Below are positions 34,333 through 64,000 of a stretch of 64,000 nucleotides of DNA, one piece after another; position 1 is the stretch's first letter; every line of letters begins with the position of its first letter. The stretch lies in the NCBI GenBank assembly GCA_938004065.1, contig CALKWM010000038.1:2466-66465 (forward strand), read 5' to 3'. The position numbers and the translations under genes were made by a program. The DNA comes from an uncultured bacterium (GTDB taxonomy: Bacteria > Patescibacteriota > JAHJAL01). A model generated the notes under the pieces. It was not told the origin of the DNA and searched no databases. It was given only the letters and a program-made list of their open reading frames with translations.

Positions 34333-35100
34333 CTACAGTTGCTCGGCGAAGGAACGTTGGGAGCGTTGAAAAATAACTAGTCCTAAAATTAATATAAGAA
34401 AAATTCCAAAAAGATGAAGCCAGGGATAATATGGGAGAGTCGGATAATCAAACGTAATAAATATCAGGCGAAAGTCGGTGATAATTTGGGCGATTGGGTT
34501 AATCATCAGATATTTATCATATGGTGAGGTAATCATACTAAAAGGGTAAATGATGGGAGTGGCGTAAAAAAATATTTGCAGAAATAATTCCCAGATATAC
34601 GATATGTCACGATAGCGGACATACAAACTAGACAAGATTAGTGCTAGTGAGAATCCCAAAACCCATAGTTCAATGATATAAAGTGGAGCCAATAAAGTTT
34701 TCAGGTGAAAAACATCGATCTTGAAAATTATCATGAGAATAATCAGAACCATAACATTGAAAGATAAATTTATCAAAGCGCTGAAAGATGAGACTAGTAC
34801 AATAATTATCCTAGGAAAATAGATTTTTTTGATCAAGGAGGAACGTTGGACGATTGAATGTAGCCCATTGGTGGTAACTTCGACAAAAAAATTCCACAAG
34901 ACTATACCGATGAGCAAATACATCGGAAAATTGGGAACGGAATCGCCAAAACGGAGCATTTGGGCGAATACTATATAGAGAACCAAAAACAATCCTAGTG
35001 GCTTCAAAAACGACCAGAGATATCCCAAGACCGACCCCGAGTAGCGGAGTTTGAAGTCGGTGTAAGTGAGTTGGCGGATTATTTCGAGGTTTTGTTTCAT
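34333..35100 (-). CDS. wzm: ABC-2 type polysaccharide exporter permease (Wzm/TagG-like)
   Basis: 6-TM ABC-2 permease immediately upstream of wzt. Overlaps the next gene by 4 nt. Confidence 0.8.
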   Translation of the reverse strand: MKQNLEIIRQLTYTDFKLRYSGSVLGYLWSFLKPLGLFLVLYIVFAQMLRFGDSVPNFPMYLLIGIVLWNFFVEVTTNGLHSIVQRSSLIKKIYFPRIIIVLVSSFSALINLSFNVMVLIILMIIFKIDVFHLKTLLAPLYIIELWVLGFSLALILSSLYVRYRDISYIWELFLQIFFYATPIIYPFSMITSPYDKYLMINPIAQIITDFRLIFITFDYPTLPYYPWLHLFGIFLILILGLVIFQRSQRSFAEQL

Positions 35101-35867
35101 TTGATCTTTTTCAATACAAAATAATGATGAAGGCCAACTAGCGTCATAATGGGACTGATAATGTATTCGAAAGCTTTGAGAGCAGGAAAGGCAAAGTTGG
35201 GAAGTTTTTGATCAAGCCAGATTCCACCTGTAGCAATATAGCGGATAAATCCAAATGGTTTATGATAGACCAGTTTAAATTGAGGGAATAATTTCTGAAA
35301 TTTTTCTTTGTCTCTTTTGAGAAGTAAATAACTCAGGGCTTGATTACTACCGGACATAGGACCGGACTTTTCTAGTTGCCACACAGATGCGTATTCGTCG
35401 AACGGCTCGGGATGGATATTTTTGTATAGATATTTGGCAAGCGGACTCCAGTATGGCTCTACCATAACCAATCCCCCACCCGAGATTAATACTCTGTCTG
35501 CTTCATGAAAAAATTTGGTGACATCGGGAATGTGGTGTAGGACATGCACGGCGAATATTGAATTGAGAGAATTGTTATCAAAGGGAATATTTTGGGCATC
35601 AATGATATGATCGACATTTTCCACTTCTTTGACGTCTGAGGTAATAATATCAGGATACAAATCTTTTAAGAAACCTCCACCTGAACCAAGTTCGAGTATT
35701 TTATCACCATCATCGAGAAATTTTTTATTTAGCGACATCATATGATGATAAATTTCTGAGTAAACGTCGTTTAGACATTTCTTGTTTCTCATAATTTCTA
35801 CCGCTTGCAAGGTAGTCTCGGGAGAGTCAAAGTCTATCTCCTGATATTCTTTTGGTTGGATAATCAT
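35097..35867 (-). CDS. class I SAM-dependent methyltransferase
   Basis: Motif I ILELGSGGGFL, acidic residue DIITSD. Confidence 0.65.
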   Translation of the reverse strand: MIIQPKEYQEIDFDSPETTLQAVEIMRNKKCLNDVYSEIYHHMMSLNKKFLDDGDKILELGSGGGFLKDLYPDIITSDVKEVENVDHIIDAQNIPFDNNSLNSIFAVHVLHHIPDVTKFFHEADRVLISGGGLVMVEPYWSPLAKYLYKNIHPEPFDEYASVWQLEKSGPMSGSNQALSYLLLKRDKEKFQKLFPQFKLVYHKPFGFIRYIATGGIWLDQKLPNFAFPALKAFEYIISPIMTLVGLHHYFVLKKIK

Positions 35868-36245
35868 TTAAATAGTTTCTTGATTAAAACCGGCGATGAT
35901 AAATATGCCAATAATTATCAAAAATGTTCCCAATAAATGCGACCAGCTGATATTCTCGTGAATAACCATATATGCAGCCAAAAAATTGAAAATATATGTC
36001 AAAGCTGTTAGAGGGATAACCAAGGAAAGTTGGTAGTGGGATAAAAGATAAAAGAACAGAATCATAGATATGCCGTAAAATATTATTCCTAGTATGATTT
36101 TGAATGACAAGAAAAGTGAAATAATGTTTCCGGGGTTTTGGAATGTAAAAGGGTTGGTGGCAAGCTCCAACTTCCAGAAAGTATTGGCGGCGGCATTGAG
36201 CAATGTCGCTAGTAAAATTGGAATTAATAATTTGAGAATGCTCAT
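35868..36245 (-). CDS. small 4-TM membrane protein (SMR/DMT-like, candidate lipid-linked sugar flippase subunit)
   Basis: 125 aa with four hydrophobic segments. Size and context resemble ArnE/ArnF or GtrA-type proteins. Confidence 0.4.
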   Translation of the reverse strand: MSILKLLIPILLATLLNAAANTFWKLELATNPFTFQNPGNIISLFLSFKIILGIIFYGISMILFFYLLSHYQLSLVIPLTALTYIFNFLAAYMVIHENISWSHLLGTFLIIIGIFIIAGFNQETI

Positions 36246-37144
36246 TTTTTGAGATATTTATTGATAATTGCAAAAGTTTCATTGGCATGTTTTTGAGAGG
36301 AAAGACCAATGACGATATTTTTGATTTTGGGTAGTGAGAAAAGATAATCGTAAGCTTCATGGGGATCGATAGAGCCAGATGCCAAGGTGGCCATGGCTAA
36401 AACTTTGTAATTGTTTTTCGTGAGCGCTTTTTCGCAAGCTTTTCGACTGGGATTCATAAGAAACCCGCGTTTGTTGAAAGATGCCATGACAATGGTGTTT
36501 TTTATTCCCGATTTTTTAAGAAGCTGGCAAAACTTGGGGTAGTTGAGAGTGCAAAATGCAGGAATAACTCCATATTTTTTTTGGATATAGTCATAGTAAC
36601 TACGGATAACATTGGTCATCTGATACCCTAGCGCCAAATCACTAAGTGCATTGTGAAGAAAGACTGCTTTGAGATTGAGATCAAAGAATGGGTTGAGCTC
36701 GGCATCGACAAGCCGATTGGTAATGGAAAGATAGTTATTGGTAGCAACAGCATATGCACTTTTGGCAAAATACTCTGTGGATTTTAAAAAACTTTGTCCT
36801 TTAAAAACGGTTTTAATCGATTCATACATACCCATTTCACTGGCCATGCGAACATACTTGACAATATAAGGAAGGTTGACATAGATATTGAGATTTTTTT
36901 TAAGTGCAGAATCACCGCGAATCATATCTGTAATTTCATAGATTCGAGGATGTGTGGAAAATACGATACCATTTACTCCTTTATCCATAGCATAATGGAT
37001 GATTTTTTTAATTTCCGACATATCTTTGAATTTTTTTTCGCTGATTTTTCCTTTTTCCTGAGACATATGATTAACACCGAAGAATTGATTGTCTCCAAGA
37101 ATAATTGGGTCGATATCAGCTGTATTAATAAATTTCTGATTCAT
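36242..37144 (-). CDS. hypothetical protein (possible TIM-barrel sugar-modifying enzyme)
   Basis: 300-aa ORF in operon context. No diagnostic motif. Confidence 0.35.
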   Translation of the reverse strand: MNQKFINTADIDPIILGDNQFFGVNHMSQEKGKISEKKFKDMSEIKKIIHYAMDKGVNGIVFSTHPRIYEITDMIRGDSALKKNLNIYVNLPYIVKYVRMASEMGMYESIKTVFKGQSFLKSTEYFAKSAYAVATNNYLSITNRLVDAELNPFFDLNLKAVFLHNALSDLALGYQMTNVIRSYYDYIQKKYGVIPAFCTLNYPKFCQLLKKSGIKNTIVMASFNKRGFLMNPSRKACEKALTKNNYKVLAMATLASGSIDPHEAYDYLFSLPKIKNIVIGLSSQKHANETFAIINKYLKK

Positions 37145-48863: not shown

Positions 48864-51080
48864 ATGAAAAAGTTTTTTGGGTGGGTGGTGGTTTTTGTAC
48901 TTTTAGCGTCGTTATTCATAAATATTCAAGGTGTAAAAGCAGCGACGACTATATTGCATGAGTTTTCAGGAGGAGGGAGTGATGGAGCTAATCCACGCAC
49001 TGGTCTTACTCACTACGACGGTAAACTTTATGGAACAACGTTTAATGGAGGGGATTCAAATGAAGGAACAGTTTTTAGAGTTGATATAGATGGCTCAAAC
49101 TTCACTTTGTTGCATGAATTTGCGGGAGGAGGGAGTGATGGAGCAAAACCTTTTAGTGCTTTGCTAATAGAATCTGGCGTGATTTATGGAACAACCACCA
49201 AAGGAGGTGATAATAATATTGGAACAATATTCTCAATGAATACTAATGGAACAGGATTCACTTTATTGCATGAATTTGCAGGTGGTGCAAATGATGGCCA
49301 AAGTCCACTTGGCTCTTTAATTCTAGATACTGGTGTTCTTTATGGAACAACAGATCGAGGTGGAGACTACAATTATGGAACCATATATTCCATCCAAACA
49401 GATGGAAATAATTTTTCTTTGTTGCATGAGTTCGCGGGATCTCCAAACGAAGGAAGTTACCCTAAGGGCAATTTACTTTATAGTGAAGGAAAGCTATACG
49501 GAACTACAAACAGTGGAGGAAATGCGACAGGATATGGGTATGGATATGGCACAATATTCTCTATCGATACAGATGGAACTAATCACGTACTTTTACACGA
49601 ATTTGGTGGAGGAAATAATGATGGTGCTTATCCATACGGAGGATTAGTTATCGACTCAGGCACGCTTTATGGCTTAACTAATAGTGGAGGCGACAGTGGC
49701 TATGGAACTATTTTTTCGATAGATACCAATGGAACAAATTTTACTCTGTTGCATGAGTTTGCTGGGGGCAATGATGACGGTAATAGTCCTAAAGATTCAT
49801 TATTGTTAAGTAATGGAACATTGTTTGGAACAACATTTTATGGAGGTGAATTTGGAGCTGGTTTTGGCTATGGTACTATTTTCTCAATTGATACTAATGG
49901 TTTGAATTTTGGTTTACTACATGAGTTTGAATCAGGTACAGATGATGGTAGCTGGCCAGAAGGAAATCTAATTCTGGTTTCTAATAATTTTTACTCAACC
50001 ACAAATGCTGGTGGTGACAGCAATTTAGGTACAATTTTTAGTACAGATCTGCCTATATCTTCAGGTCCTACATCAATCAAAAACACGCTAAGCAGTTCCG
50101 CTCCCGGGGAATTGGTGAATATGACTATCGAATACACTCCAGCACTAACAACTGCTGTGACTGATGGATCGGTTAAATTAACCCTCGCTGAAGAATTTGA
50201 TTTTAACGGAATATCAAAAGACGACGTATCTGCCAGTGGTGGAGATGTTACTTGGGATCCTAATGAGATAATAACAGTCGATGGGACAATAATCACAAGA
50301 AATAATAGCTGGGTAGACAGAGTTTACGCGCAGGGAGAAGATAGTATTGTGTTTGGATTTACGGGAGATTTGGACAATACTGGCGGGACAATTACATTTA
50401 CCATCAATGGAGCGACCGCTCCGTTGAATCCCGGTTCAATTGGTTCATATGATTTCAATGTGGGAGTTTTTTCGACCAGCGACGGTACCGGTGCGGCTTT
50501 GGAAGTAAGAGATGGGAGAGTGGCGATTGCCAGTCAAGTAAATGTTACCGCCACCGTTCCATCTACCCTAACTCTAACAATTAATGGAGTGGCAAGTGGA
50601 AACGCGTGTAGTAATAGTGGTAGCAATGCATCAGTTACAACAACATCTTCTACTATTCCATTTGGAATATATACCGGAGCACAAACCAAGATAGCTTGTC
50701 AGACATTAACAGTAAGTACCAATGCTACCAATGGATATATCGTAACTGTCGAACAAGATCAAGATCTAACCAGTGCCGGATCAGATACAATGAAAGCTTT
50801 TTCCGGTACTTATGCCACTCCAACAACTTGGGCAACACCTCCGGGGAGTGGAACGGAATCATTTTTTGGATTTACGACTGATGATACCGGCTACTCCAGT
50901 TTTCAAACAGCTAAATACGCGGGATTTGCGGTGGATAATACTCCATATGCCATCATGACCGGACCGGAACCGGTGGTTGATGAAGAGAATGTAATTTCCT
51001 ATCAATTGGAAGTTACTAACTTGCAAGAAGCGGGTGTTTATAGTAATACTGTAATGTATATTGCGACGGCGATGTTTTAG
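48864..51080 (+). CDS. secreted repeat protein: signal peptide, 8 tandem ~45-aa beta-propeller-like repeats (LLHEFxGGxxDGxxPxxxL....LYGTTxxGG....GTIFSI) resembling choice-of-anchor GloVer-type repeats, plus ~330-aa C-terminal module shared with the 57651-62075 protein
   Basis: Signal peptide MKKFFGWVVVFVLLASLFINIQGVKA. LHEF occurs 8 times at regular spacing. C-terminal module ends ...VMYIATAMF. Confidence 0.7.
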   Translation: MKKFFGWVVVFVLLASLFINIQGVKAATTILHEFSGGGSDGANPRTGLTHYDGKLYGTTFNGGDSNEGTVFRVDIDGSNFTLLHEFAGGGSDGAKPFSALLIESGVIYGTTTKGGDNNIGTIFSMNTNGTGFTLLHEFAGGANDGQSPLGSLILDTGVLYGTTDRGGDYNYGTIYSIQTDGNNFSLLHEFAGSPNEGSYPKGNLLYSEGKLYGTTNSGGNATGYGYGYGTIFSIDTDGTNHVLLHEFGGGNNDGAYPYGGLVIDSGTLYGLTNSGGDSGYGTIFSIDTNGTNFTLLHEFAGGNDDGNSPKDSLLLSNGTLFGTTFYGGEFGAGFGYGTIFSIDTNGLNFGLLHEFESGTDDGSWPEGNLILVSNNFYSTTNAGGDSNLGTIFSTDLPISSGPTSIKNTLSSSAPGELVNMTIEYTPALTTAVTDGSVKLTLAEEFDFNGISKDDVSASGGDVTWDPNEIITVDGTIITRNNSWVDRVYAQGEDSIVFGFTGDLDNTGGTITFTINGATAPLNPGSIGSYDFNVGVFSTSDGTGAALEVRDGRVAIASQVNVTATVPSTLTLTINGVASGNACSNSGSNASVTTTSSTIPFGIYTGAQTKIACQTLTVSTNATNGYIVTVEQDQDLTSAGSDTMKAFSGTYATPTTWATPPGSGTESFFGFTTDDTGYSSFQTAKYAGFAVDNTPYAIMTGPEPVVDEENVISYQLEVTNLQEAGVYSNTVMYIATAMF

Positions 51081-54889: not shown

Positions 54890-57523
54890 CTAAATATTAA
54901 AATTTTTGTTTTCATAGTTATTCATCCAAATTACATCCATATTTTGTTGATGGTAATTATTGAAATATGAAAATCTTTTTGGTTCTGGGAAAATATATTT
55001 CTCATTAATAAGAGCAATTCTTTCTTTGAGAGCTTCTTCAAAAGCACCACCGGTGCGATTGGTTCTTATTTGAGGATTTTCTGAAGTGAGAATTTTATCG
55101 ATACCGTTATCGGTGGCAAAAATCGATAGTTGTTTTATCAGTTCGTCAAAGAGTAGTTTTTCATCGATTTTAAAGAGAAATGTGCTGCAAGGATTTAGTG
55201 AGGCGGTAAGAATTTTTTGGCTATTTTCCTCGTAGTAATGGAGCAACACTAATCCTTGACAATTTTTTGTTTGCGAGTCATGTAAAGCCATTTGGAAATA
55301 ATTTGACATTTCCCACATATTTTCCGGTCTTTTTTCATTTCCTTCGTATGATAGAGGGTTGTCTCCGGATACGCATACACCGCCAACAGACCGAGTATGG
55401 GCGGAGGTATGATTTTTGGTGATATAACAATCGAGTTTTTTTAGTTGAGTAACTCGATCACTTGTAGTTTCTATGGGTTGAAATTTGGCAATTTCCTGAT
55501 CGATAAAATTTATCTCTTCCAAAAATATATCGTGAAATAATTGGGTTAAATAATTTGCAAAAAGATGCTGATCATAAGATTTATTGCCAATATTTTTTTC
55601 GAGGTCCAGATATTCTGTCAAATTTAATTCCCCCAAATGGATTGAAGCGGGATCGATTTTTTCCTTTTTTAGAATTTCCAGGGCTTTGGCAGCTTTGTTT
55701 TGTTCATTGGAAATAATACCGGCAATTGCTTTGCCTTTTTGGTCCAGGATGATTTCTTTGGTCTCATTCGTTTTAAAAAGTTTAGTTTTTTTGTTTTTTA
55801 ATACGTTTTCGATTTTCACCAATACATGAACACCGCCAATCTTGTCAATTTGCATTTTGTTTATTTTGTCCTGCATTAGTATTTCTTGTTCTTGACCGGA
55901 TATTTTCTGGTAGAAATGAGTTAAAATCTTTTCGAATACTTTATTTTCGAGGGCTTTGGTAACGATTTCTCTCTGGGTATCTTTGATTTTATCGGTGAAA
56001 AACTCTCTTATTTCCAATAGATAAAAATATTCCGGACTGGTTGATTGGTTTACTCTGTCTCGTGTGCCTTGCAAGTACTCCTCAATCACAGGAAAATGGG
56101 CTATTTGGTATTCGATAATGATTTGTTTTATTTCCGACGTGGTAATATCGGGATTCAGTTGAGCTTCCAGTAGAAGGACCAGAATCTTATCTTCATTGGT
56201 ACATAGTTTATCTTGAGAAATATTAAATTTATTAAAAATCGAATCAATTTTATGGCTAAACAAGGTTAGCTTTTCGTCGGAATTAAATTTGGTAATCTCA
56301 GATACGGGGTGTTTGATCTGGTATTCCAAAGTGGATAATTTATTTTTATCAAGTTTAACATTTTCTTTGACAACCATTTTATTACCAGGCATCAATTTGA
56401 TAGGATAATTATCTCTGATTGAAAATATTGATAAATCGGCTGTGCGGTCCGGGCAACTTTCATTGCTTTTAAAGCTGCTATATTGTGAATTTTGAGGATA
56501 GAGAGCTTTGATGATATCTTGGTAGTATTTTTCGTCGATAATGTTGGGATCTTGTTTGGAAGGAGAGGTAAATTTTTCTTTTTTCTGGTTAATGTCGTCA
56601 ATAAAACCCTGGAGAAGAATGGGGTCGTTCTGTTTTCTCAGATTGTGATAATCTTTTAGAACTTCACCATAGACAACTCCCGTATCTTGGTGACAGGATA
56701 GTAAACTGTATTCTGTTTCTAGATATTTAACCGCTTTTTTGTCGAATTTTGACAAATGCAACATAATTTCATGAGGTTCTCTTTCTTGCATTATTACTTG
56801 AAGTGACTCAATACCCAGATTTTTAAATTTGGGATAGTATTCAAGGTTAAAAATATTTAATGAGGTGTGCCGGGAGATTTTGATGGCAACACTATCTGAT
56901 AACCAGGGCATTTTTTGCAGTAAGTTAGTTACCAAAAAATATTTATCAATCCCATCGATCAGACCGGCAATGTAGTCATTGATTTTGACAATTAATTGGT
57001 GAGACAATTTTTGCATTTGATCAGCATTCAATACATGAGTAATATACATTATGCCTTCATTGTTTTTGTCACTTTCGAGAATTTGGTTGGCAATGTAGTT
57101 TATATCACAGCCCGAAAGATCATCGGCAATTTTTAAAAGATAATTTATTTTGTTAGCTGCAAGTAATTTATCAACTACAAGATGATGAAATACAGGGTCG
57201 ATTTCTTTGGCAAAACATGCCAAATGCAGAATCAAACCTTTTTCATACATTTTTTCAATAATTGTTGTTGGATCAGGGATATTAAATTGGTCTAAATGTC
57301 TGGCCAACTCACTTCCCAAGCCCGAGTCAATGAGGTGGAGGGCGTATTTCGTATGCATATTTTGGGGCAATTCGGAAACAAAAATTGAGTCAAAATCTTC
57401 AGAATTTTCGATTTTTTCCAGCCATTTTTGCTGATTGATTTTGTCTTGAAAAGCCGAATTTTCGTCGGGTAATTTTTTCGAATCTGATTCAGAAGGTCTA
57501 TATTGGTCAAAATTCTGGTTCAT
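54890..57523 (-). CDS. large cytoplasmic hypothetical protein (877 aa, predominantly alpha-helical, Cys/His-containing C-terminal region)
   Basis: Long uninterrupted ORF, no signal peptide. No recognisable domain. C-terminal segment CYITKNHTSAHTRSVGGVCVSGD... Confidence 0.5.
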   Translation of the reverse strand: MNQNFDQYRPSESDSKKLPDENSAFQDKINQQKWLEKIENSEDFDSIFVSELPQNMHTKYALHLIDSGLGSELARHLDQFNIPDPTTIIEKMYEKGLILHLACFAKEIDPVFHHLVVDKLLAANKINYLLKIADDLSGCDINYIANQILESDKNNEGIMYITHVLNADQMQKLSHQLIVKINDYIAGLIDGIDKYFLVTNLLQKMPWLSDSVAIKISRHTSLNIFNLEYYPKFKNLGIESLQVIMQEREPHEIMLHLSKFDKKAVKYLETEYSLLSCHQDTGVVYGEVLKDYHNLRKQNDPILLQGFIDDINQKKEKFTSPSKQDPNIIDEKYYQDIIKALYPQNSQYSSFKSNESCPDRTADLSIFSIRDNYPIKLMPGNKMVVKENVKLDKNKLSTLEYQIKHPVSEITKFNSDEKLTLFSHKIDSIFNKFNISQDKLCTNEDKILVLLLEAQLNPDITTSEIKQIIIEYQIAHFPVIEEYLQGTRDRVNQSTSPEYFYLLEIREFFTDKIKDTQREIVTKALENKVFEKILTHFYQKISGQEQEILMQDKINKMQIDKIGGVHVLVKIENVLKNKKTKLFKTNETKEIILDQKGKAIAGIISNEQNKAAKALEILKKEKIDPASIHLGELNLTEYLDLEKNIGNKSYDQHLFANYLTQLFHDIFLEEINFIDQEIAKFQPIETTSDRVTQLKKLDCYITKNHTSAHTRSVGGVCVSGDNPLSYEGNEKRPENMWEMSNYFQMALHDSQTKNCQGLVLLHYYEENSQKILTASLNPCSTFLFKIDEKLLFDELIKQLSIFATDNGIDKILTSENPQIRTNRTGGAFEEALKERIALINEKYIFPEPKRFSYFNNYHQQNMDVIWMNNYENKNFNI

Positions 57524-57650: not shown

Positions 57651-60600
57651 TTAGAAGGTCGGCGTCGCGATATAGGTGATAGTGGTGGAATAGGTGCCGG
57701 GTGATTGGAATTTGGTTAGATTCAATCGATAACCGATACGAGTGATCTGGTCGGCTACGGGGCCGGAGTCATAGGCCACTTCTTGCGGTAGTGTGTCGAA
57801 AGCGGCCCATTTATCAGAAACGAAACGATCTACCGGTGAAGTAAAGAGCGAATCATCGGAAGTTGTATAACCGAAATACCCTTCGGTACCGGAGCCGGGA
57901 GGAGCGCTCCAAGTGGCCGGTGAAGAGTTGGAATGAGGGAAGTTTGAAATAGTGCCTGTTGCAGAAGTCATGGTCTGATCGTATTCGATAGTAACTACGT
58001 AACCGTCGGTAGCGTTGGTGGAAACTTGCAAATCATGAGCTTGGATACGGTCATCGGCATCGGAGTATAGACCAAAATCAACAGCGCCGGGGGAAGTGGT
58101 GGCAGAGGTGATAGTTGCACCGTTGACGTTGCCGGTGGCAACCGGTAAAATGTCGAAAGTTAGATATGATGGTACGGTGGCGGTTACGATAACAACGTGG
58201 TTTAAAAATACCATACCGTCCCCTATCTCAACCGGCTCACCAAAGCCACTCTGATTGTCATACAGGTTGTAACTCACCGAGAAAGAACCGGTACTGGATG
58301 GATTGGTCGGTTCGTTGAGGGCACCGATCGTAAATGATAGCTGGCCATCGGAATTGTCGATAGTGCCGGTAAATGGGAAGACGATAGCATCTTCACCGGC
58401 GGCATAACCGTGTTCAATCCACCATGCCCAGTGGTTGGCAACGATGGTACCGTCGTCGTAGATTATTTCATCGTTTGTCCAGGTAACATCACCACCACTG
58501 GCCGAGACGTCGTCTTTGGTTAGTTGTGAAAGATCATAATCATTGTGTAGTCGAATTTTGATACTACCATTGGAGATGGCGGTGGTAGTTAAATCAAGTG
58601 TGAACGTAACCAAGATATTTCCGGATTTTCCCGGATCGGAAGTTTCAAGCAATGCCCTCATACCTCCACCGGCTAAATTTTCATCAACTTCGTAATCGAT
58701 TTGATATGAATTGGTGGATTTGTTGCCGGCTACGTCCATGCAACGCATAAATACTGACTTGAAGCCGTCGGAATAATGGGCAACCGTACAATTGGTGGTG
58801 CTTTCACAAGTGCCGGTCATAGAGTCGTAAGCAACATTGGAATTACTCCATTTGCAGGCGACGGCGTCGGTGTCGGCAGTGTAAACGATCAAGGCCACGC
58901 CATCTTCGACGATATCAACATAGGGTGCCTGGGTGTCACCAGCGACGGAGCTAACGGTTAAAACATTGGGGACTATGCTGTCTATGGTGTAATTGACTTC
59001 ATAACTACTGGTCATCTTGTTGCCGGCTTCGTCACGACATCTAATATAAACAGTTTTGGCACCTTGACCGGAAAGATTGGCGGTACAATTGCCGGCCGAA
59101 GTACAAGTGTTGGGCATACTATCGTACGCCTGATCTACGAAAGACCATTTGCACTCGGTTGGGTCGCCACTGGTGTTGTATAGTATCTGAGTGGAACTAT
59201 CGTCGGTAGTGTCATAATAAGGCGAAGTGGTGTCGCCGGCAATTGATGTGATTGATGTGATTGACGGTGGAGTAGCATCAATAGTGTAATTTAGAACATA
59301 TGATGTTGGAGAATCCAGTTCGTTGGCATCACGGCAACGCATATAGACAGTTTTGGCGGTTTCGCCGGTAAGATCCAGATTACAATTGGAGGTATCGGTA
59401 CAAGTATTGGCCATAGCGCCGTAAGTCAAATCGGTTTCGTCCCATTTGCAACTGACGGCATCGGCCGAAGCGGTATAAATCACGTCTGTTGAGCCATCGT
59501 CAGTAGTGTCGTAATAAGTAGTAGTGGTATCACCGGCGACAGAGGTAATGGAAATAACTTCCGGCGGGGTGGAATCGATGGTGTAGTTGAGAGTGTAAGA
59601 AGATGAAGCCGCATTGTCAGCGCCGTCGATACATCGCAGGTAAACCGTATGGGCGGATTCGCCGGTCAGATTGAGTGTACAATGAGAGGAGTCAGTACAA
59701 CTATTGACCATAGCGCCGTAAGTTAAATCGGTTTCGTCCCATTTGCATCCGGTAACGCCGGTTAAATTGTCTGAAGAAGTAAATACGACCTGGGTATTAC
59801 CATCATCGGTAGTATCGACATAAGGGGCAGAAGTATCGCCAGCCACTGAAGTAATGGAATCAATGGTCGGTGCGGTTTTGTCGTATCTGGTCTCGTAGTT
59901 GTATTCATCGCCCCAGATGTCAGCCGAAGAGAACGGCCGAACATGCATGAAATGTATGCCTTCGGTAAATAAATAATTGTCAATATTGGAGTCGAGAGAA
60001 AGTTTTCGTAAATATTCATTGGATATTTCAGAAGGACTTAGAGCTTGATCAAAAATTTTCACCTCGTCTATGTCTCCATTAAATCTTCTCAGTACACTGC
60101 TCCATGAGATATAAATATCGCCATTGGAATTTTTGATGTTACCGGTAAAAGGATTTGAGTCTTCAAGCTGACCATTAATATAAAGTGATACATTACTACC
60201 GTCATAAACACCAACCACATGCGTCCAGACTCCATTATTTATTGTTGATGAAGAAATGGCATCGCCATAAGAGCCGGAAGTATTTTGGACATAGAACCGC
60301 CAATAGGGATTATACATTTGAAGATAAAAATCATCTCCTCCGCTATGCGGATCAGTACAAACCAGAGCATCATAACTGCTCACTGCTGCATTCCTTTTGA
60401 CCCAGGCCGATACCGTGATGGCATTTGACGGATGCAGTTCAATCGAGGAAGGTATTGTGACGTGATCATTTACGCCATCAAATGTTCTGGCATTACCCAA
60501 TTGGCCGGTGGTAACAGTCGATTCACTTAAAGTTCCATGGTTTCCTTCCCCACTGTGATCAAACGCTGTCGTAGTATTATCATTTTCAAAATTCCACCAG

Positions 60601-62075
60601 CCGACCAGATCGTCGTTGGTGATAGCGGGCACACTTGAGTCATTTTCCAGATAATAGTAATAGTAAAGCGGTTCGCTGATCTGATTGGAATAAGTTGATG
60701 TGCTCCAGTCGGAAATATTGTCCAAGGCGTCTTTGGCGCGGACAAAGTAATAGTAAGTGTTTTCATCCAGACTGGTGAATGTATATTCCGGATCAGTCAG
60801 CCACCCTGATGGAGTACAACCGGTAGTGGAATCCGTGTCGTTAATACAAAATTGATATTGGACAGTATCAACTCCGTCATCAATCACACTGGTGGAAGAG
60901 ACTGTGTTCTCTGTACCGGAAGTGTATTCCGGTTCGGCATTCATGGTCGGCACGGGTGGCGGGGTATTGTCTTGTTCGTATTCATAGTCTGATGAGGTGA
61001 GGTAACAATTGTTGGCATCGTCACAAGTTATGTATTTGAAATGACTGGTAATGGAAATGGAATGATCCGCCCAGGTGGGAGACGATTGGTCGGGCTCACT
61101 GGTGTCGTCAGTGTAACGAATTATAGTTCCTCCGGTTCCCGGCGTACAAGCAACAGCCAAATCGTCTTTGAAGTAAGTACCACTGACCGGGGTACAGGTA
61201 GGAGAGGCAGTGGGACCGGATTTATCGATTTTGAATTGGAGTGATTGAATACTTTGTTCATTGCCAGCATTGTCCAGTGAATAATAACGGAAATAATTTG
61301 TACCTTCAGTTGAAAAAGCTTGTGGTGATAAGTATTCGGTAGTGGGTGTACATGTATTGGTTTGATCAGTACAGAAATAAGTTGTATCAATGCCGGAAAA
61401 ATTATCCACTGGTACAGCAGTGATAGTGATATCGGTGGTGTACCAGTTATCACTACCCAACGTTCCTGCGGTAACTGAGGCGGAGGTAGTCGGGTCGGTT
61501 ACGTCTTTGTCGATACCAAACGATCGGGTTATGCTTTCATAATAGCCATCGTGGGCGCGAACATAGATGGTAGTCGCACCGTCGGCCGGGTAGTTTGTCC
61601 AAGAGGAAACATCGGGTGTGCCGACCATCGTCAAATCATCCACCGGACTGAGTTCGGTATCTATTGTATGCCAGTTAATTTCGTCAAAAGACCCTTCACA
61701 AGTAATCGTCTGATCCGATTCCGTGTCCGTCACACCCAGACACTGAATATTGAAAGCGGTTTGATTGAGTGAATTTATATAGCTTTCCGAGGTGGTAGCG
61801 CTATCCAGCAAAACTTCGTTGTCCGACTGGATGAAGCCGGATTCCAGATCGTAAGTTGTATTGCTGTCATGACTGCCGGCAAACGGTTCGCCAAAACTGT
61901 CGGTCAAAAAATAGTTGGTTGATGTGCTATCATCTGCACCGGCATTATTGGTTACATCATGTACAATCTCATAATTGGCACTGTTCATAGCCATGGCCGA
62001 ATAGCTAACCAAACCGGTCATCCAGACGGAGACAAGCATTACCAGAAATTTATTATTGATTAGTTTGGTTAACAT
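57651..62075 (-). CDS. giant secreted/surface protein: signal anchor, Ig/CHB_HEX_C-like DNAGN segments, LamG-like jellyroll domain, four ~96-aa Cys-containing tandem repeats, and a ~330-aa C-terminal module shared with 48864-51080
   Basis: N-terminal MLTKLINNKFLVMLVSVWMTGLVSYSAMA. LamG-like region (..NHGTLSES..FDGVNDHVTIPSS..VSAWVKR..GDIDEVKIFDQALS). Four repeats ..SITSVAGDT..YYDTTDDGST..CKW.ETDLTYGAM.N.CTD.S.C.L.LTGE.A.TVY.RC.D.A.N... C-terminus ...ITYIATPTF. Confidence 0.75.
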   Translation of the reverse strand: MLTKLINNKFLVMLVSVWMTGLVSYSAMAMNSANYEIVHDVTNNAGADDSTSTNYFLTDSFGEPFAGSHDSNTTYDLESGFIQSDNEVLLDSATTSESYINSLNQTAFNIQCLGVTDTESDQTITCEGSFDEINWHTIDTELSPVDDLTMVGTPDVSSWTNYPADGATTIYVRAHDGYYESITRSFGIDKDVTDPTTSASVTAGTLGSDNWYTTDITITAVPVDNFSGIDTTYFCTDQTNTCTPTTEYLSPQAFSTEGTNYFRYYSLDNAGNEQSIQSLQFKIDKSGPTASPTCTPVSGTYFKDDLAVACTPGTGGTIIRYTDDTSEPDQSSPTWADHSISITSHFKYITCDDANNCYLTSSDYEYEQDNTPPPVPTMNAEPEYTSGTENTVSSTSVIDDGVDTVQYQFCINDTDSTTGCTPSGWLTDPEYTFTSLDENTYYYFVRAKDALDNISDWSTSTYSNQISEPLYYYYYLENDSSVPAITNDDLVGWWNFENDNTTTAFDHSGEGNHGTLSESTVTTGQLGNARTFDGVNDHVTIPSSIELHPSNAITVSAWVKRNAAVSSYDALVCTDPHSGGDDFYLQMYNPYWRFYVQNTSGSYGDAISSSTINNGVWTHVVGVYDGSNVSLYINGQLEDSNPFTGNIKNSNGDIYISWSSVLRRFNGDIDEVKIFDQALSPSEISNEYLRKLSLDSNIDNYLFTEGIHFMHVRPFSSADIWGDEYNYETRYDKTAPTIDSITSVAGDTSAPYVDTTDDGNTQVVFTSSDNLTGVTGCKWDETDLTYGAMVNSCTDSSHCTLNLTGESAHTVYLRCIDGADNAASSSYTLNYTIDSTPPEVISITSVAGDTTTTYYDTTDDGSTDVIYTASADAVSCKWDETDLTYGAMANTCTDTSNCNLDLTGETAKTVYMRCRDANELDSPTSYVLNYTIDATPPSITSITSIAGDTTSPYYDTTDDSSTQILYNTSGDPTECKWSFVDQAYDSMPNTCTSAGNCTANLSGQGAKTVYIRCRDEAGNKMTSSYEVNYTIDSIVPNVLTVSSVAGDTQAPYVDIVEDGVALIVYTADTDAVACKWSNSNVAYDSMTGTCESTTNCTVAHYSDGFKSVFMRCMDVAGNKSTNSYQIDYEVDENLAGGGMRALLETSDPGKSGNILVTFTLDLTTTAISNGSIKIRLHNDYDLSQLTKDDVSASGGDVTWTNDEIIYDDGTIVANHWAWWIEHGYAAGEDAIVFPFTGTIDNSDGQLSFTIGALNEPTNPSSTGSFSVSYNLYDNQSGFGEPVEIGDGMVFLNHVVIVTATVPSYLTFDILPVATGNVNGATITSATTSPGAVDFGLYSDADDRIQAHDLQVSTNATDGYVVTIEYDQTMTSATGTISNFPHSNSSPATWSAPPGSGTEGYFGYTTSDDSLFTSPVDRFVSDKWAAFDTLPQEVAYDSGPVADQITRIGYRLNLTKFQSPGTYSTTITYIATPTF

Positions 62076-62111: not shown

Positions 62112-62894
62112 TTAACTACAATAATTTCGAATACAGCGGAAATATCGCAAACTACTATCGGTTTTGGTCACGGTACTTGATCCGCCAAAACTGAAATTGG
62201 TCGTGAAGGCGGTATTGACATCATTTTGATACGAACTCCAATAATCATTGGGTTGAAAACCACCTCCAGCAGAAACGCGATTGGTAAACAATGTACCAAG
62301 TTGAGTTTGTGCCGGTAAGAACCAGTCGCTATATCCATATTTGATTAAATTGTAACAATGATCGGCAGCCGGATTGGTCGGCGGATTATTGTTATATAAC
62401 CAGGTAGTGAGAGTTTCACCATCAGTAGGATCGCCGCCTGGCCATTCATTGTAGCCAACCGCACTAGCCCATTGTTTGGTCACCAGATCAATACCGCTAC
62501 AAGCCGGTTCATTTGTAGAGTTGGCACAACCGCTTGGCATTGCTACCATACAATTGGCGTATTTATAACCACCACCGCAGTTGGTACCGACGGCATCACC
62601 GGCAGTACATTCACAAGTTGGACCGGTACAGGTCGGACCACATGTAACATTGGCCAATCCACCGGCAGTACATTTATCATTGAAAGCGTTCCATTCCAAA
62701 TCAGTGTTGTTTGGCACAAAGTAGTCATACGAACTGTTATTGACTACTTGTCGGCTACGTTCGGTAATTACCGTGGTGGTCCCGTGGTTGGCACGATAAT
62801 AAGTAGCGGCATAGGCGATCAGAATCGGAATCGTAATCAAACAAAGCAGACTTAAAGCAACTATTAAAAATGTTTTTGTTTTGAACTTGAACAT
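62112..62894 (-). CDS. secreted Cys-rich protein with DUF1566 (Lcl C-terminal)-like domain
   Basis: N-terminal signal anchor. Cys-rich segment TCGPTCTGPTCECT. C-terminal DWFLPAQTQLGTLF...NDYWSS...YFRCIRN resembles DUF1566. Confidence 0.5.
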   Translation of the reverse strand: MFKFKTKTFLIVALSLLCLITIPILIAYAATYYRANHGTTTVITERSRQVVNNSSYDYFVPNNTDLEWNAFNDKCTAGGLANVTCGPTCTGPTCECTAGDAVGTNCGGGYKYANCMVAMPSGCANSTNEPACSGIDLVTKQWASAVGYNEWPGGDPTDGETLTTWLYNNNPPTNPAADHCYNLIKYGYSDWFLPAQTQLGTLFTNRVSAGGGFQPNDYWSSYQNDVNTAFTTNFSFGGSSTVTKTDSSLRYFRCIRNYCS

Positions 62895-62917: not shown

Positions 62918-63985
62918 TTATTTATTTTTCAATGTTTCAACTTCTTGTTTCAATTGATCAATTTGGGTTTGTTGTTCTTGAATCGCTTTCAACAATACCG
63001 CTGTCATGTTGCCGTATTCCATCCCTTTCATGCCAGTGCTTGGATTGGTAGTTACAAGCTCCGGATAATACTTCTCAACATCTTGGGCGATAAAACCTAT
63101 TTCCTTGTCGCCGCCGGTTTTCCAATTAAAGGTAACCGGTTGAATTTGTTTAACTTTTTCTAAAGTATTATCAGCCAATGGTTGAATATTGGTTTTCAAT
63201 CGTTGGTCGGAACTATAGATGAAAGAAGCAGCTTGCACGTCACCATTAACATCTAGTTCTTGTCCTGGATTTGTCATCCCAATCCCAACCATGCCGCCAT
63301 TGGGATTCAATGTGAGTGCAGTAGTTGTGACGCCGTTATAAACCGATTGAATCCAACCATAATACGGACTTGCGCCATTATTGTATCCCATCGCCAAACG
63401 ATATTGGTTTCCTCCACCAGTAACCAACAAAGAACCAAGTTCACCTGACGGTGAGGTGCTGGCTCCAGCAATATGAGTAGTAGTCAATGGTCCTGTAGTG
63501 CCAATCCCGAAATTACCGCCAGATGGATTAATAGTAACGGGCACAGAAGCTGCGTCATTAAGCATACCTTGTAGCCAGGTAGAACCATTGGACAAAGTTC
63601 CCATCGCTAAGCCATAGCCGTTATCAGATCCACGTAAATACAGTGATGAATTAGCTACACTGACACTAGAGGGAACAGTTCTGAGAATGCTAACTTTGGA
63701 AGATAATGTTCCAGTAGCACCGATACCAACATTCCCGGAAGAATCAACCATTATGTCGTCTTTGGAATTTGTACGACCTATACCAAAACTATTAGTGGCT
63801 CCGCTCCAACGATTACCGATATACCAATCGCTAGCGGTATCTTTGAAATGTATATTTTGGTCATAACTGGCACCACCTGTACTCTCGATTAATATTGAAG
63901 CATCTGCAGAACTTCTATTGAGGTGCAAACCGGCCGCTGGCGTAACTGTTCCTATACCAACGTTACCATTCCATCTCCAAGTCAT
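62918..63985 (-). CDS. tail-fibre-like Gly-rich beta-helical protein with C-terminal peptidase S74 intramolecular-chaperone domain (5' end probably beyond window)
   Basis: SDQRLKTNIQPLADNTLEKV...GFIAQDVEKYYPELV...MEYGNMTAVLLKAIQEQQ matches the S74 chaperone-of-endosialidase domain. Reading frame open to the window edge. Confidence 0.65.
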   Translation of the reverse strand: MTWRWNGNVGIGTVTPAAGLHLNRSSADASILIESTGGASYDQNIHFKDTASDWYIGNRWSGATNSFGIGRTNSKDDIMVDSSGNVGIGATGTLSSKVSILRTVPSSVSVANSSLYLRGSDNGYGLAMGTLSNGSTWLQGMLNDAASVPVTINPSGGNFGIGTTGPLTTTHIAGASTSPSGELGSLLVTGGGNQYRLAMGYNNGASPYYGWIQSVYNGVTTTALTLNPNGGMVGIGMTNPGQELDVNGDVQAASFIYSSDQRLKTNIQPLADNTLEKVKQIQPVTFNWKTGGDKEIGFIAQDVEKYYPELVTTNPSTGMKGMEYGNMTAVLLKAIQEQQTQIDQLKQEVETLKNK

Positions 63986-64000
63986 TAGATTAATACCTTG

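Follow-up and report, generated by a model that had tools for sequence, protein, structure and literature searches.

Among the closest described counterparts of the locus analysed here is the Pam pilus of Candidate Phyla Radiation (CPR) bacteria (PamA/PamB/PamT), reported in a preprint that is also the source of the NCBIfam Pam models (Troman et al. 2026, bioRxiv 10.64898/2026.03.03.709456). That work proposes membrane-anchored chaperones for Pam assembly, describes a tail-fibre-like gene that is conserved in and central to pam neighbourhoods, notes paired cysteines in extracellular Pam proteins and states that how the fibres contact the host is unknown; the words ‘adhesin’, ‘LamG’, ‘lectin’ and ‘fusion’ do not occur in its text. 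Here we describe a 1474-aa secreted protein encoded on a 64,000-nt stretch of an uncultured Patescibacteriota genome (GenBank assembly GCA_938004065.1, contig CALKWM010000038.1, positions 2,466 to 66,465; hereafter the window), in which four tandem cysteine-containing repeats (Cys-repeats) abut a C-terminal unit (C-unit) that profile comparison identifies as a homologue of Pam pilins. The means by which ultrasmall epibionts recognise their hosts and stay attached to them are largely an open question, and this fusion suggests how CPR bacteria mount adhesins on surface fibres.

Immunoglobulin (Ig)-fold adhesins in Patescibacteria have already been recognised in general terms, and large secreted Cys-rich proteins with a proposed role in attachment were described in Peribacteria (Anantharaman et al. 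2016, PMC4736985). The protein described here resembles the latter in being a large, secreted, Cys-rich CPR protein, and one relative from a Peribacteraceae metagenome-assembled genome (MAG; P0005) carries five Cys-repeat copies; the repeat, its fold, the disulfide pairing and the link to a pilin-type anchor were not defined in that study.

Tandem repeats with paired cysteines

The Cys-repeats form a seamless head-to-tail array of four copies (aa 740–1138, nt 58662–59858 on the reverse strand) with a period of 99–102 aa, rather than the ~96 aa of the original prediction, which had placed the array at 58720–59875, covering nearly all of it but starting 17 nt early and ending 58 nt short of the end of copy 4. 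Copy-versus-copy blastp gave 36–61% identity (E 4e-27 to 6e-48), well outside what chance would give, 23 columns are invariant among the four copies, all four cysteines included, and the Cys-to-Cys spacing of 16, 6 and 16 residues is identical in each, so that the predicted four tandem repeats with four conserved cysteines are borne out. The repeats are maintained at the protein level. Tandem Repeats Finder detected no DNA-level or long-period array, which rules out a recent DNA duplication as their origin, and DNA similarity is detectable only between copies 1 and 2 (72% over 227 nt), thus the duplications are old.

When 1.84 billion cluster representatives were searched exhaustively with the repeat profile, the repeats proved to belong to a large family: 6633 proteins pass E<=1e-3, of which 1722 also pass E<=1e-10 and 191 pass E<=1e-30. 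By comparison, a word-indexed search for homologs of the repeat region, which returned 5 proteins only, was a strong underestimate; a homolog search with a diverse repeat alignment recovered mostly short fragments, few of them named, and a genome-contig scan with the whole 1474-aa protein returned nothing. Named members belong to Patescibacteria, Peribacteraceae and Magasanikbacteria, with one MAG labelled Nitrospirota, and are thus mostly from CPR lineages. The arrays are seamless throughout, with 1–30 copies per protein and a within-protein identity ranging from 32% to 97%, which indicates that array expansion and contraction are ongoing.

Cysteine conservation was assessed in the top 150 proteins, 86 of which contributed 394 near-full-length copies. 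The first and fourth cysteines (C1, C4) are kept in 97% and 96% of these copies, the second and third (C2, C3) in 65% and 82%; exactly four cysteines are present in 76% of copies and exactly two in 20%. The losses are coupled, with all four conserved positions occupied in 310 copies, only C1 and C4 in 67, only C2 and C3 in 10 and any other pattern in just 7. As the cysteines are lost in pairs, C1–C4 and C2–C3 are the likely disulfide partners, a pattern that supports the two disulfides per repeat that had been proposed for the window copies from their sequence. The cysteines stand within a wider family signature, C-[KR]-W..D..Y..M...C.....C...L...G..T-V-Y-x-x-C-x-D-x-x-G-N, in which the conserved core consists of the cysteines, a Trp, a Tyr and the D-x-x-GN turn. 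The variant with C1 and C4 only is more widespread, and includes a fragment from an Aenigmarchaeota MAG (P0207, a DPANN archaeon). In this fragment and in P0199/P0204, all outside the CPR, the two-Cys variant occurs with an FN3-like ‘Y-x-Y-Y-V-R-C-x-D’ pattern.

An AlphaFold2 (AF2) model was computed for copy 2 from an alignment of 16 copies (A2), which itself proved too variable to design a sequence pattern from. The model is confident (predicted local distance difference test, pLDDT, 94.5; predicted template-modelling score, pTM, 0.83) and all-beta, its seven strands packing into two sheets to give a sandwich of ~100 aa. Strand C (C-K-W) carries C1 and strand F (R-C-x-D) carries C4, whilst C2 and C3 flank the C-x5-C loop before strand E. 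Foldseek matched the model to PKD-like domains of clostridial collagenases, FN3 domains, Y_Y_Y domains and SiiE in the PDB with a probability of ~1.0, in line with the Ig-like modules originally suggested, although the matches were weak in strength (best E 0.013; TM-score 0.53–0.64 for the best, 0.4–0.64 among the top matches) and no close solved relative was found (no PDB match at E<=1e-3). On the basis of this model, the Cys-repeat is predicted to be an Ig/FN3-like beta-sandwich of the E-set type.

A C-terminal unit related to Pam pilins

The original prediction read the repeats as a stalk and overlooked what lies at their C-terminal end, where copy 4 abuts the C-unit (aa 1139–1474). The NCBIfam model CPR_Pam_pilin_C (NF058581) matches aa 1329–1474 with 33.6 bits in the context of the whole protein and 40.2 bits when the unit is isolated, against a cutoff of 55, and it matches all 15 units in an alignment of the family (A3; 15/15), in every case below the cutoff, 40.2 bits being the best. 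When the A3 alignment was used to search databases it returned many stand-alone proteins of 320–420 aa, and its profile matched P0195, a bona fide Pam pilin (102.6 bits against the cutoff of 55), with E 7e-9 in 5.8 billion sequences. A direct hhalign comparison of A3 with P0195 gave 96.9% probability (E 1.6e-10, 205 columns), the alignment spanning the end of the N-terminal domain (NTD), the linker strand and the C-terminal domain (CTD) as far as ‘...TTITYIA-PT[YF]’. By these profile comparisons the C-unit is homologous to Pam pilins and represents a diverged subfamily. Since the stand-alone pilin-like proteins begin, just after their signal peptide, with the same segment that opens the C-unit, the C-unit corresponds to a complete mature pilin.

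In the AF2 model of the C-unit (pLDDT 84.3, pTM 0.53) an isolated strand separates two beta domains, and this predicted NTD, linker strand and CTD layout agrees with that described for PamA and PamB by cryo-EM. A PDB search with the C-unit profile, in a PDB set without Pam structures, returned no match, and Foldseek gave only low-TM-score matches to other two-domain adhesins and pilins, CupB6 and PapG among them, which are not decisive. Genome matches to the C-unit numbered five, all in Patescibacteria, the group in which Pam pili also occur, and a tail-fibre-like gene lies nearby, as one does in pam neighbourhoods. The 1474-aa protein differs from Pam pilins in carrying an N-terminal passenger of ~1100 aa on its pilin unit, in a C-unit that scores below the curated cutoff and has no cysteine, and in the lack of pamC-, pamD- or pamR-like genes found nearby.

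The fusion is recurrent. In the window protein and in the Patescibacteria MAG loci L003/L004 (9 copies), L006 (4 contiguous copies) and L007 (a 2024-aa fusion), no more than a few residues separate the end of the last Cys-repeat from the beginning of the pilin unit, with a conserved EVDE...GGG(G) hinge at the junction. For copy 4 of the window protein the best match in each of P0008, P0001 and P0009 is their last copy, the one next to the pilin unit, whilst copy 3 best matches the penultimate copy of P0001; as copy 4 is most similar to the last copies of its relatives, the pilin-proximal copies are positionally conserved whilst the distal copies expand. The P0008 locus is also syntenic with the window (giant protein, iPGM, Wzy_C/TPR, Bac_transf), and this synteny and the five genome matches, all Patescibacteria, assign the window to that group. 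C-units are found at the extreme C-terminus of at least 11 other giant repeat-bearing proteins of 1.5–6.4 thousand aa with varied passengers; the term ‘giant’ first applied to the window protein is therefore generous for its own 1474 aa, but apt for relatives of up to 6.4 thousand aa.

A second pilin-like unit is encoded in the window itself (Table 1), at the C-terminus of a 738-aa protein, which suggests that this organism uses the C-unit generally as an anchor for surface display. The 738-aa protein is secreted and carries seven GloVer (‘choice-of-anchor’) repeats ahead of its pilin-like unit (aa 405–738).

A proposed stalk between anchor and putative binding modules

A LamG-like domain precedes the repeats, as had been predicted, and four Ig-like modules lie N-terminal to it (Table 1). 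The protein has a hydrophobic signal-like segment at its N-terminus (hydrophobic window from aa 10), and its sequence contains no C-terminal transmembrane helix, LPXTG or other wall-binding motif; the pilin unit is therefore the only candidate attachment device. With the anchor at the C-terminus, the Cys-repeats are anchor-proximal, and the LamG domain and N-terminal Ig-like modules are probably the distal end. As the repeats abut the anchor unit, the stalk first proposed for them is geometrically sensible, and we favour, with somewhat more confidence than doubt, a rigid, disulfide-stapled stalk of tunable length that would connect a pilin-type anchor with the LamG and Ig-like modules, the putative binding part.

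In this arrangement each repeat would be an Ig/FN3-like sandwich stapled by C1–C4, from strand C to strand F, and by C2–C3 at the C-x5-C loop, and the four-repeat array would form a stiff, protease-resistant extender of roughly 15–20 nm in a Sec-secreted surface protein. The short EVDE-GGG hinge would join the array to the ~335-aa pilin unit, the probable attachment or polymerisation device, which by analogy with Pam may act through beta-strand complementation with a pilus or anchor subunit. The stalk would hold the LamG domain and the four Ig-like modules off the fibre or cell for ligand binding on a host or substrate, its reach being set by the copy number, which varies from 1 to 30 in relatives.

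Parts of this arrangement are familiar from other systems. The chaperone-usher tip adhesins FimH, PapG and CupB6 likewise fuse an N-terminal binding or lectin part to a C-terminal pilin domain that takes part in strand complementation, and two of them are among the weak structural matches noted above; the likeness is one of layout, the organism here is a CPR bacterium, and FimH and PapG lack the long multidomain stalk that separates head and pilin unit in the 1474-aa protein. The repeats of SiiE, the BIg repeats of RTX adhesins and SasG also form seamless beta-sandwich arrays of variable copy number below a distal binding region, and SiiE is itself a Foldseek match of the Cys-repeat. These extenders owe their stiffness to Ca2+ or to interfaces between domains, whereas the Cys-repeat conserves two predicted intradomain disulfides.

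Several observations weigh against the stalk and its pilin-type anchoring. NCBIfam and Pfam scans for Pam chaperones and Dsb-like proteins covered the window open-reading frames (ORFs) of 150 aa or more, other than those at 35097–35867, 35884–36360 and 36242–37144. No PamC/PamD-like chaperone or PamR-like anchor was found among these ORFs or among the L007 neighbours, no thiol-disulfide oxidoreductase (Dsb/VKOR-like) among the window ORFs scanned, and no stand-alone pilin gene in the window. No Pam operon component was detected alongside the gene in the ORFs scanned, the solitary exception being a weak PamT-like match at the N-terminus of the protein itself (NCBIfam CPR_pilus_PamT against aa 12–106, 29.7 bits against a cutoff of 240, covering the N-terminal ~100 residues of PamT). 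The C-unit falls below the curated Pam-pilin cutoff (33.6–40.2 against 55 bits), its conservation shows no concentration at the linker strand such as has been reported for Pam pilins, and the weak Foldseek matches leave the sandwich sub-type of the repeat unfixed.

These points bear most directly on the nature of the anchor. It is less probable, and on present evidence rather doubtful, that the C-unit is a non-polymerising envelope anchor or sorting domain, making the protein a stand-alone surface fibril or surface-layer-associated adhesin rather than part of a Pam-like pilus. This would account for the missing chaperone, anchor and shaft-pilin genes (beside the L007 fusion there is one small pilin-like gene only), for the sub-cutoff score and the even spread of conservation over the C-unit, and for the way in which the C-unit replaces the usual anchor on the ‘choice-of-anchor’ GloVer protein. 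On the other hand, the C-unit is a complete mature pilin with stand-alone versions, one of which is encoded directly beside a fusion gene, the hhalign alignment with a bona fide Pam pilin extends across the linker strand and CTD, and the protein lacks any of the other anchoring motifs listed above. The stand-alone gene in question (L007 6341–7381, 346 aa) lies immediately downstream of the 2024-aa Cys-repeat/pilin fusion and its product is a candidate shaft pilin; it is flanked by nucleotide-metabolism genes, not chaperones. A non-polymerising anchor is compatible with the stalk, which would then rise from the cell surface.

The fusion of repeat array and Pam-type pilin, which is absent from the text of the Pam preprint, is the more interesting lead from this locus. 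As a tentative extension, which we regard as possible but less likely than not, the diverged Pam-type pilin unit could be a universal ‘plug’ for passengers such as LamG arrays, GloVer repeats and Cys-stapled stalks, which donor-strand exchange would insert either within chaperone-assembled fibres or at their tips, so that passengers give Pam-like pili their host specificity and repeat number sets their reach. If true, the adhesin component missing from the CPR pilus system would be found in such proteins, which would represent a modular display mechanism not described for Pam. The locus in any case defines a recurrent architecture, the direct fusion of a repeat array to a pilin-type unit, it offers a model, specific enough to be tested, of how CPR surface fibres could bear lectin-like heads, and the repeat signature together with the C-unit provides practical markers for candidate host-recognition proteins in CPR metagenomes.

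Ligand binding by Ig-fold repeats is common in bacterial adhesins, and the Cys-repeats might themselves be the adhesive elements rather than a passive spacer, and bind a ligand, for instance a host envelope polymer in a multivalent manner, or make Ca2+-dependent homophilic contacts of the cadherin-like or SasG type. We think this unlikely. An acidic loop with invariant Asp residues (YYDTTDDGST) in the N-terminal third of each window copy could bind Ca2+ or a ligand, and some relatives are made almost entirely of repeats (P0007 with 30 copies, P0010 with 6 near-identical copies). However, the acidic loop is not conserved family-wide, the consensus of the 394 copies being undefined there, and it is the structural core described above that is conserved instead. 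Copy number and sequence drift freely whilst the position beside the anchor is fixed, and dedicated binding-type domains (LamG, GloVer) are located distally.

Relationship to curated Ig-like families

No curated family covers the Cys-repeat at threshold and Big_13 (PF19077) is the nearest, in agreement with the earlier statement that the repeat matched no family that could be named. Among the window copies only copy 4 matched Big_13, with 18.2 bits against a gathering score of 27 (E 0.0036). Across the family Big_13 matched 8/16 and 18/48 copies at E<=0.01 (best E 7e-8), the other matches being scattered over Ig, FN3 and PKD models. PKD itself (PF00801/PF18911) matched 0/16 and 1/48 copies (E 0.009), so that any likeness to PKD is at the fold level only, no cadherin family was among the Pfam matches at E<=10 or E<=0.01, and no NCBIfam model, the OmpL47-type model NF047446 included, matched aa 740–1138. 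The result that would have spoken against the original prediction, a match to a known Ig-like, PKD or cadherin family with cysteines not conserved across homologues, did not arise.

Big_13 and the OmpL47-type domain are like the Cys-repeat in being beta-sandwich modules of ~70–100 aa that occur in tandem arrays in large surface proteins and end in a ‘...Y-x-R-x-x-D-x-A-G-N...Y-x-x-D-x-x-x-P’ motif; Big_13 is the sole curated model that matches the copies repeatedly, and an OmpL47-type module is present in the same 1474-aa protein. The Cys-repeats differ in scoring below the curated cutoffs and in being defined by four pairwise-coupled cysteines with the signature C-[KR]-W ... Y-x-x-M ... C-x5-C. 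Comparison by hhalign with the protein's own N-terminal modules gave P-values of 7e-6 to 8e-4, the best at 84% probability (P 7e-6), with the OmpL47-type module at P 8e-5 (60%), a profile–profile similarity that for the OmpL47-type modules is only moderate. Iterated jackhmmer searches that started with the N-terminal modules picked up almost every Cys-repeat copy, a result that we discounted owing to possible profile drift, given the moderate hhalign similarity. From these profile comparisons the N-terminal Ig-like modules are, at best, remote relatives of the Cys-repeat.

That the Cys-repeat is an ordinary Big_13 or OmpL47-type Ig-like domain with incidental cysteines is very improbable, in spite of the recurrent Big_13 matches and of the iterated searches from the OmpL47-type module that pull in most copies, as the window copies lie under the Big_13 gathering score, the clean profile–profile probabilities are only 60–84%, and the cysteines are the best-conserved columns of the family and are lost in pairs, hence not incidental. 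Instead, the Cys-repeat is a new, un-curated subfamily of bacterial Ig/FN3-like stalk domain, forming a large family with a two-disulfide signature that among the named matches is found mostly in CPR-type giant surface proteins. Should the fusion model prove wrong, a new and clearly delimited subfamily of Ig-like stalk domains from bacteria would remain, useful for annotation if unsurprising.

Domain layout and gene neighbourhood

The positions of the features described are given in Table 1. The 1474-aa protein is strongly acidic in composition (Asp 9.8%, Lys+Arg 3.5%), and an identical protein is present on 5 metagenome contigs. A PDB sequence search with the protein returned LamG matches, among them 4qvs_A (E 1e-9), and the marginal 8okw_C (E 0.12), and nothing else. 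The LamG domain is apparently nested in a split FN3-like module, the halves of which read ‘YYYYLENDSS...’ before the LamG domain and ‘...GIHFMHVRPF...YDKTAP’ after it, and the same arrangement is seen in a 3514-aa protein encoded upstream. The N-terminal segment with its S-x-N-Y motifs was found, besides the 1474-aa protein, only in the ortholog P0020 among the neighbours, relatives and loci checked.

Table 1 Features of the 1474-aa protein and neighbouring genes (nt positions within the 64,000-nt window).
Feature	Position (nt)	Strand	Position (aa)	Basis or remark
Whole gene, encoding a secreted multidomain surface protein of 1474 aa, acidic and Ser/Thr-rich	57651–62075	-	1–1474	ORF list and translation; stop codon 57651–57653
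Probable Sec signal peptide (...SYSAMA-M)	61986–62075	-	1–30	Hydrophobic window; cleavage site inferred by eye
N-terminal segment, three S-x-N-Y motifs	61758–61985	-	31–106	Weak PamT-like match
Four divergent Ig-like modules	60630–61757	-	107–482	Weak matches to Cys-repeat hidden Markov model (HMM)
OmpL47-type domain	61227–61433	-	215–283	NCBIfam NF047446, 50.1 bits, cutoff 40
Split FN3-like module (apparent)	~59859–60629	-	483–739	
LamG/concanavalin-A-like jelly-roll, putative binding head	60021–60479	-	533–685	Pfam Laminin_G_3, E 7.8e-33
Cys-repeat copy 1	59553–59858	-	740–841	Cys 777/793/799/815
Cys-repeat copy 2	59256–59552	-	842–940	Cys 876/892/898/914; modelled copy
Cys-repeat copy 3	58959–59255	-	941–1039	Cys 975/991/997/1013
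Cys-repeat copy 4	58662–58958	-	1040–1138	Cys 1074/1090/1096/1112; ends in conserved EVDE..GGG hinge
C-terminal Pam-pilin-like unit	57654–58661	-	1139–1474	NCBIfam CPR_Pam_pilin_C below cutoff, AF2 model, profile comparisons
C-unit, beta domain		-	~1139–1291	
C-unit, isolated linker strand		-	1305–1312	
C-unit, C-terminal domain	57654–58091	-	1329–1474	
Second pilin-like unit, C-terminus of 738-aa GloVer-repeat protein (gene 48864–51080)	50076–51077	+	405–738	43% identity over 341 aa, E 5.6e-72; NCBIfam match; C-module HMM
877-aa ORF	54890–57523	-		
260-aa secreted Cys-rich protein	62112–62894	-		Sub-threshold Lcl_C
Peptidase_S74 tail-fibre-like gene	62918–64000	-		Cut by window end
Surface-polysaccharide cluster	27938–48591			

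Two genes upstream of the 1474-aa gene lies the tail-fibre-like gene, which encodes a Peptidase_S74 (endosialidase-chaperone) domain; it continues on another contig (L001 7095–9158), and its complete product has 687 aa. This neighbour raised the possibility of a phage or prophage origin, which was rejected for the repeat protein, as the relatives of that protein and the synteny place it in chromosomal Patescibacteria loci. Between the two genes, a 260-aa secreted Cys-rich protein is encoded with a sub-threshold match to the Lcl_C domain (Legionella collagen-like adhesin C-terminal). Beyond the window end (L001 1–6999), and in the same orientation, the upstream 3514-aa protein is rich in LamG_3 and Toxin_R_bind_N domains, and has one Cys-repeat copy and no pilin-like unit in the 2332 aa contained in L001. 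Directly downstream of the 1474-aa gene is an 877-aa ORF without a signal peptide or a Pfam or NCBIfam match, the position of which is conserved on other contigs with the 1474-aa gene (L001, L002).

Neither a tRNA gene nor an Rfam match at the gathering threshold is present in the 64-kb window; its GC content is 34–43% and GC skew is positive throughout. The surface-polysaccharide cluster encodes a 1048-aa glycosyltransferase fusion, GT2 genes and methyltransferases, together with a Wzt/Wzm-type ABC exporter, a polyprenyl glycosylphosphotransferase and a Wzy_C-TPR membrane protein, and is a possible source of glycans on the Ser/Thr-rich surface proteins.

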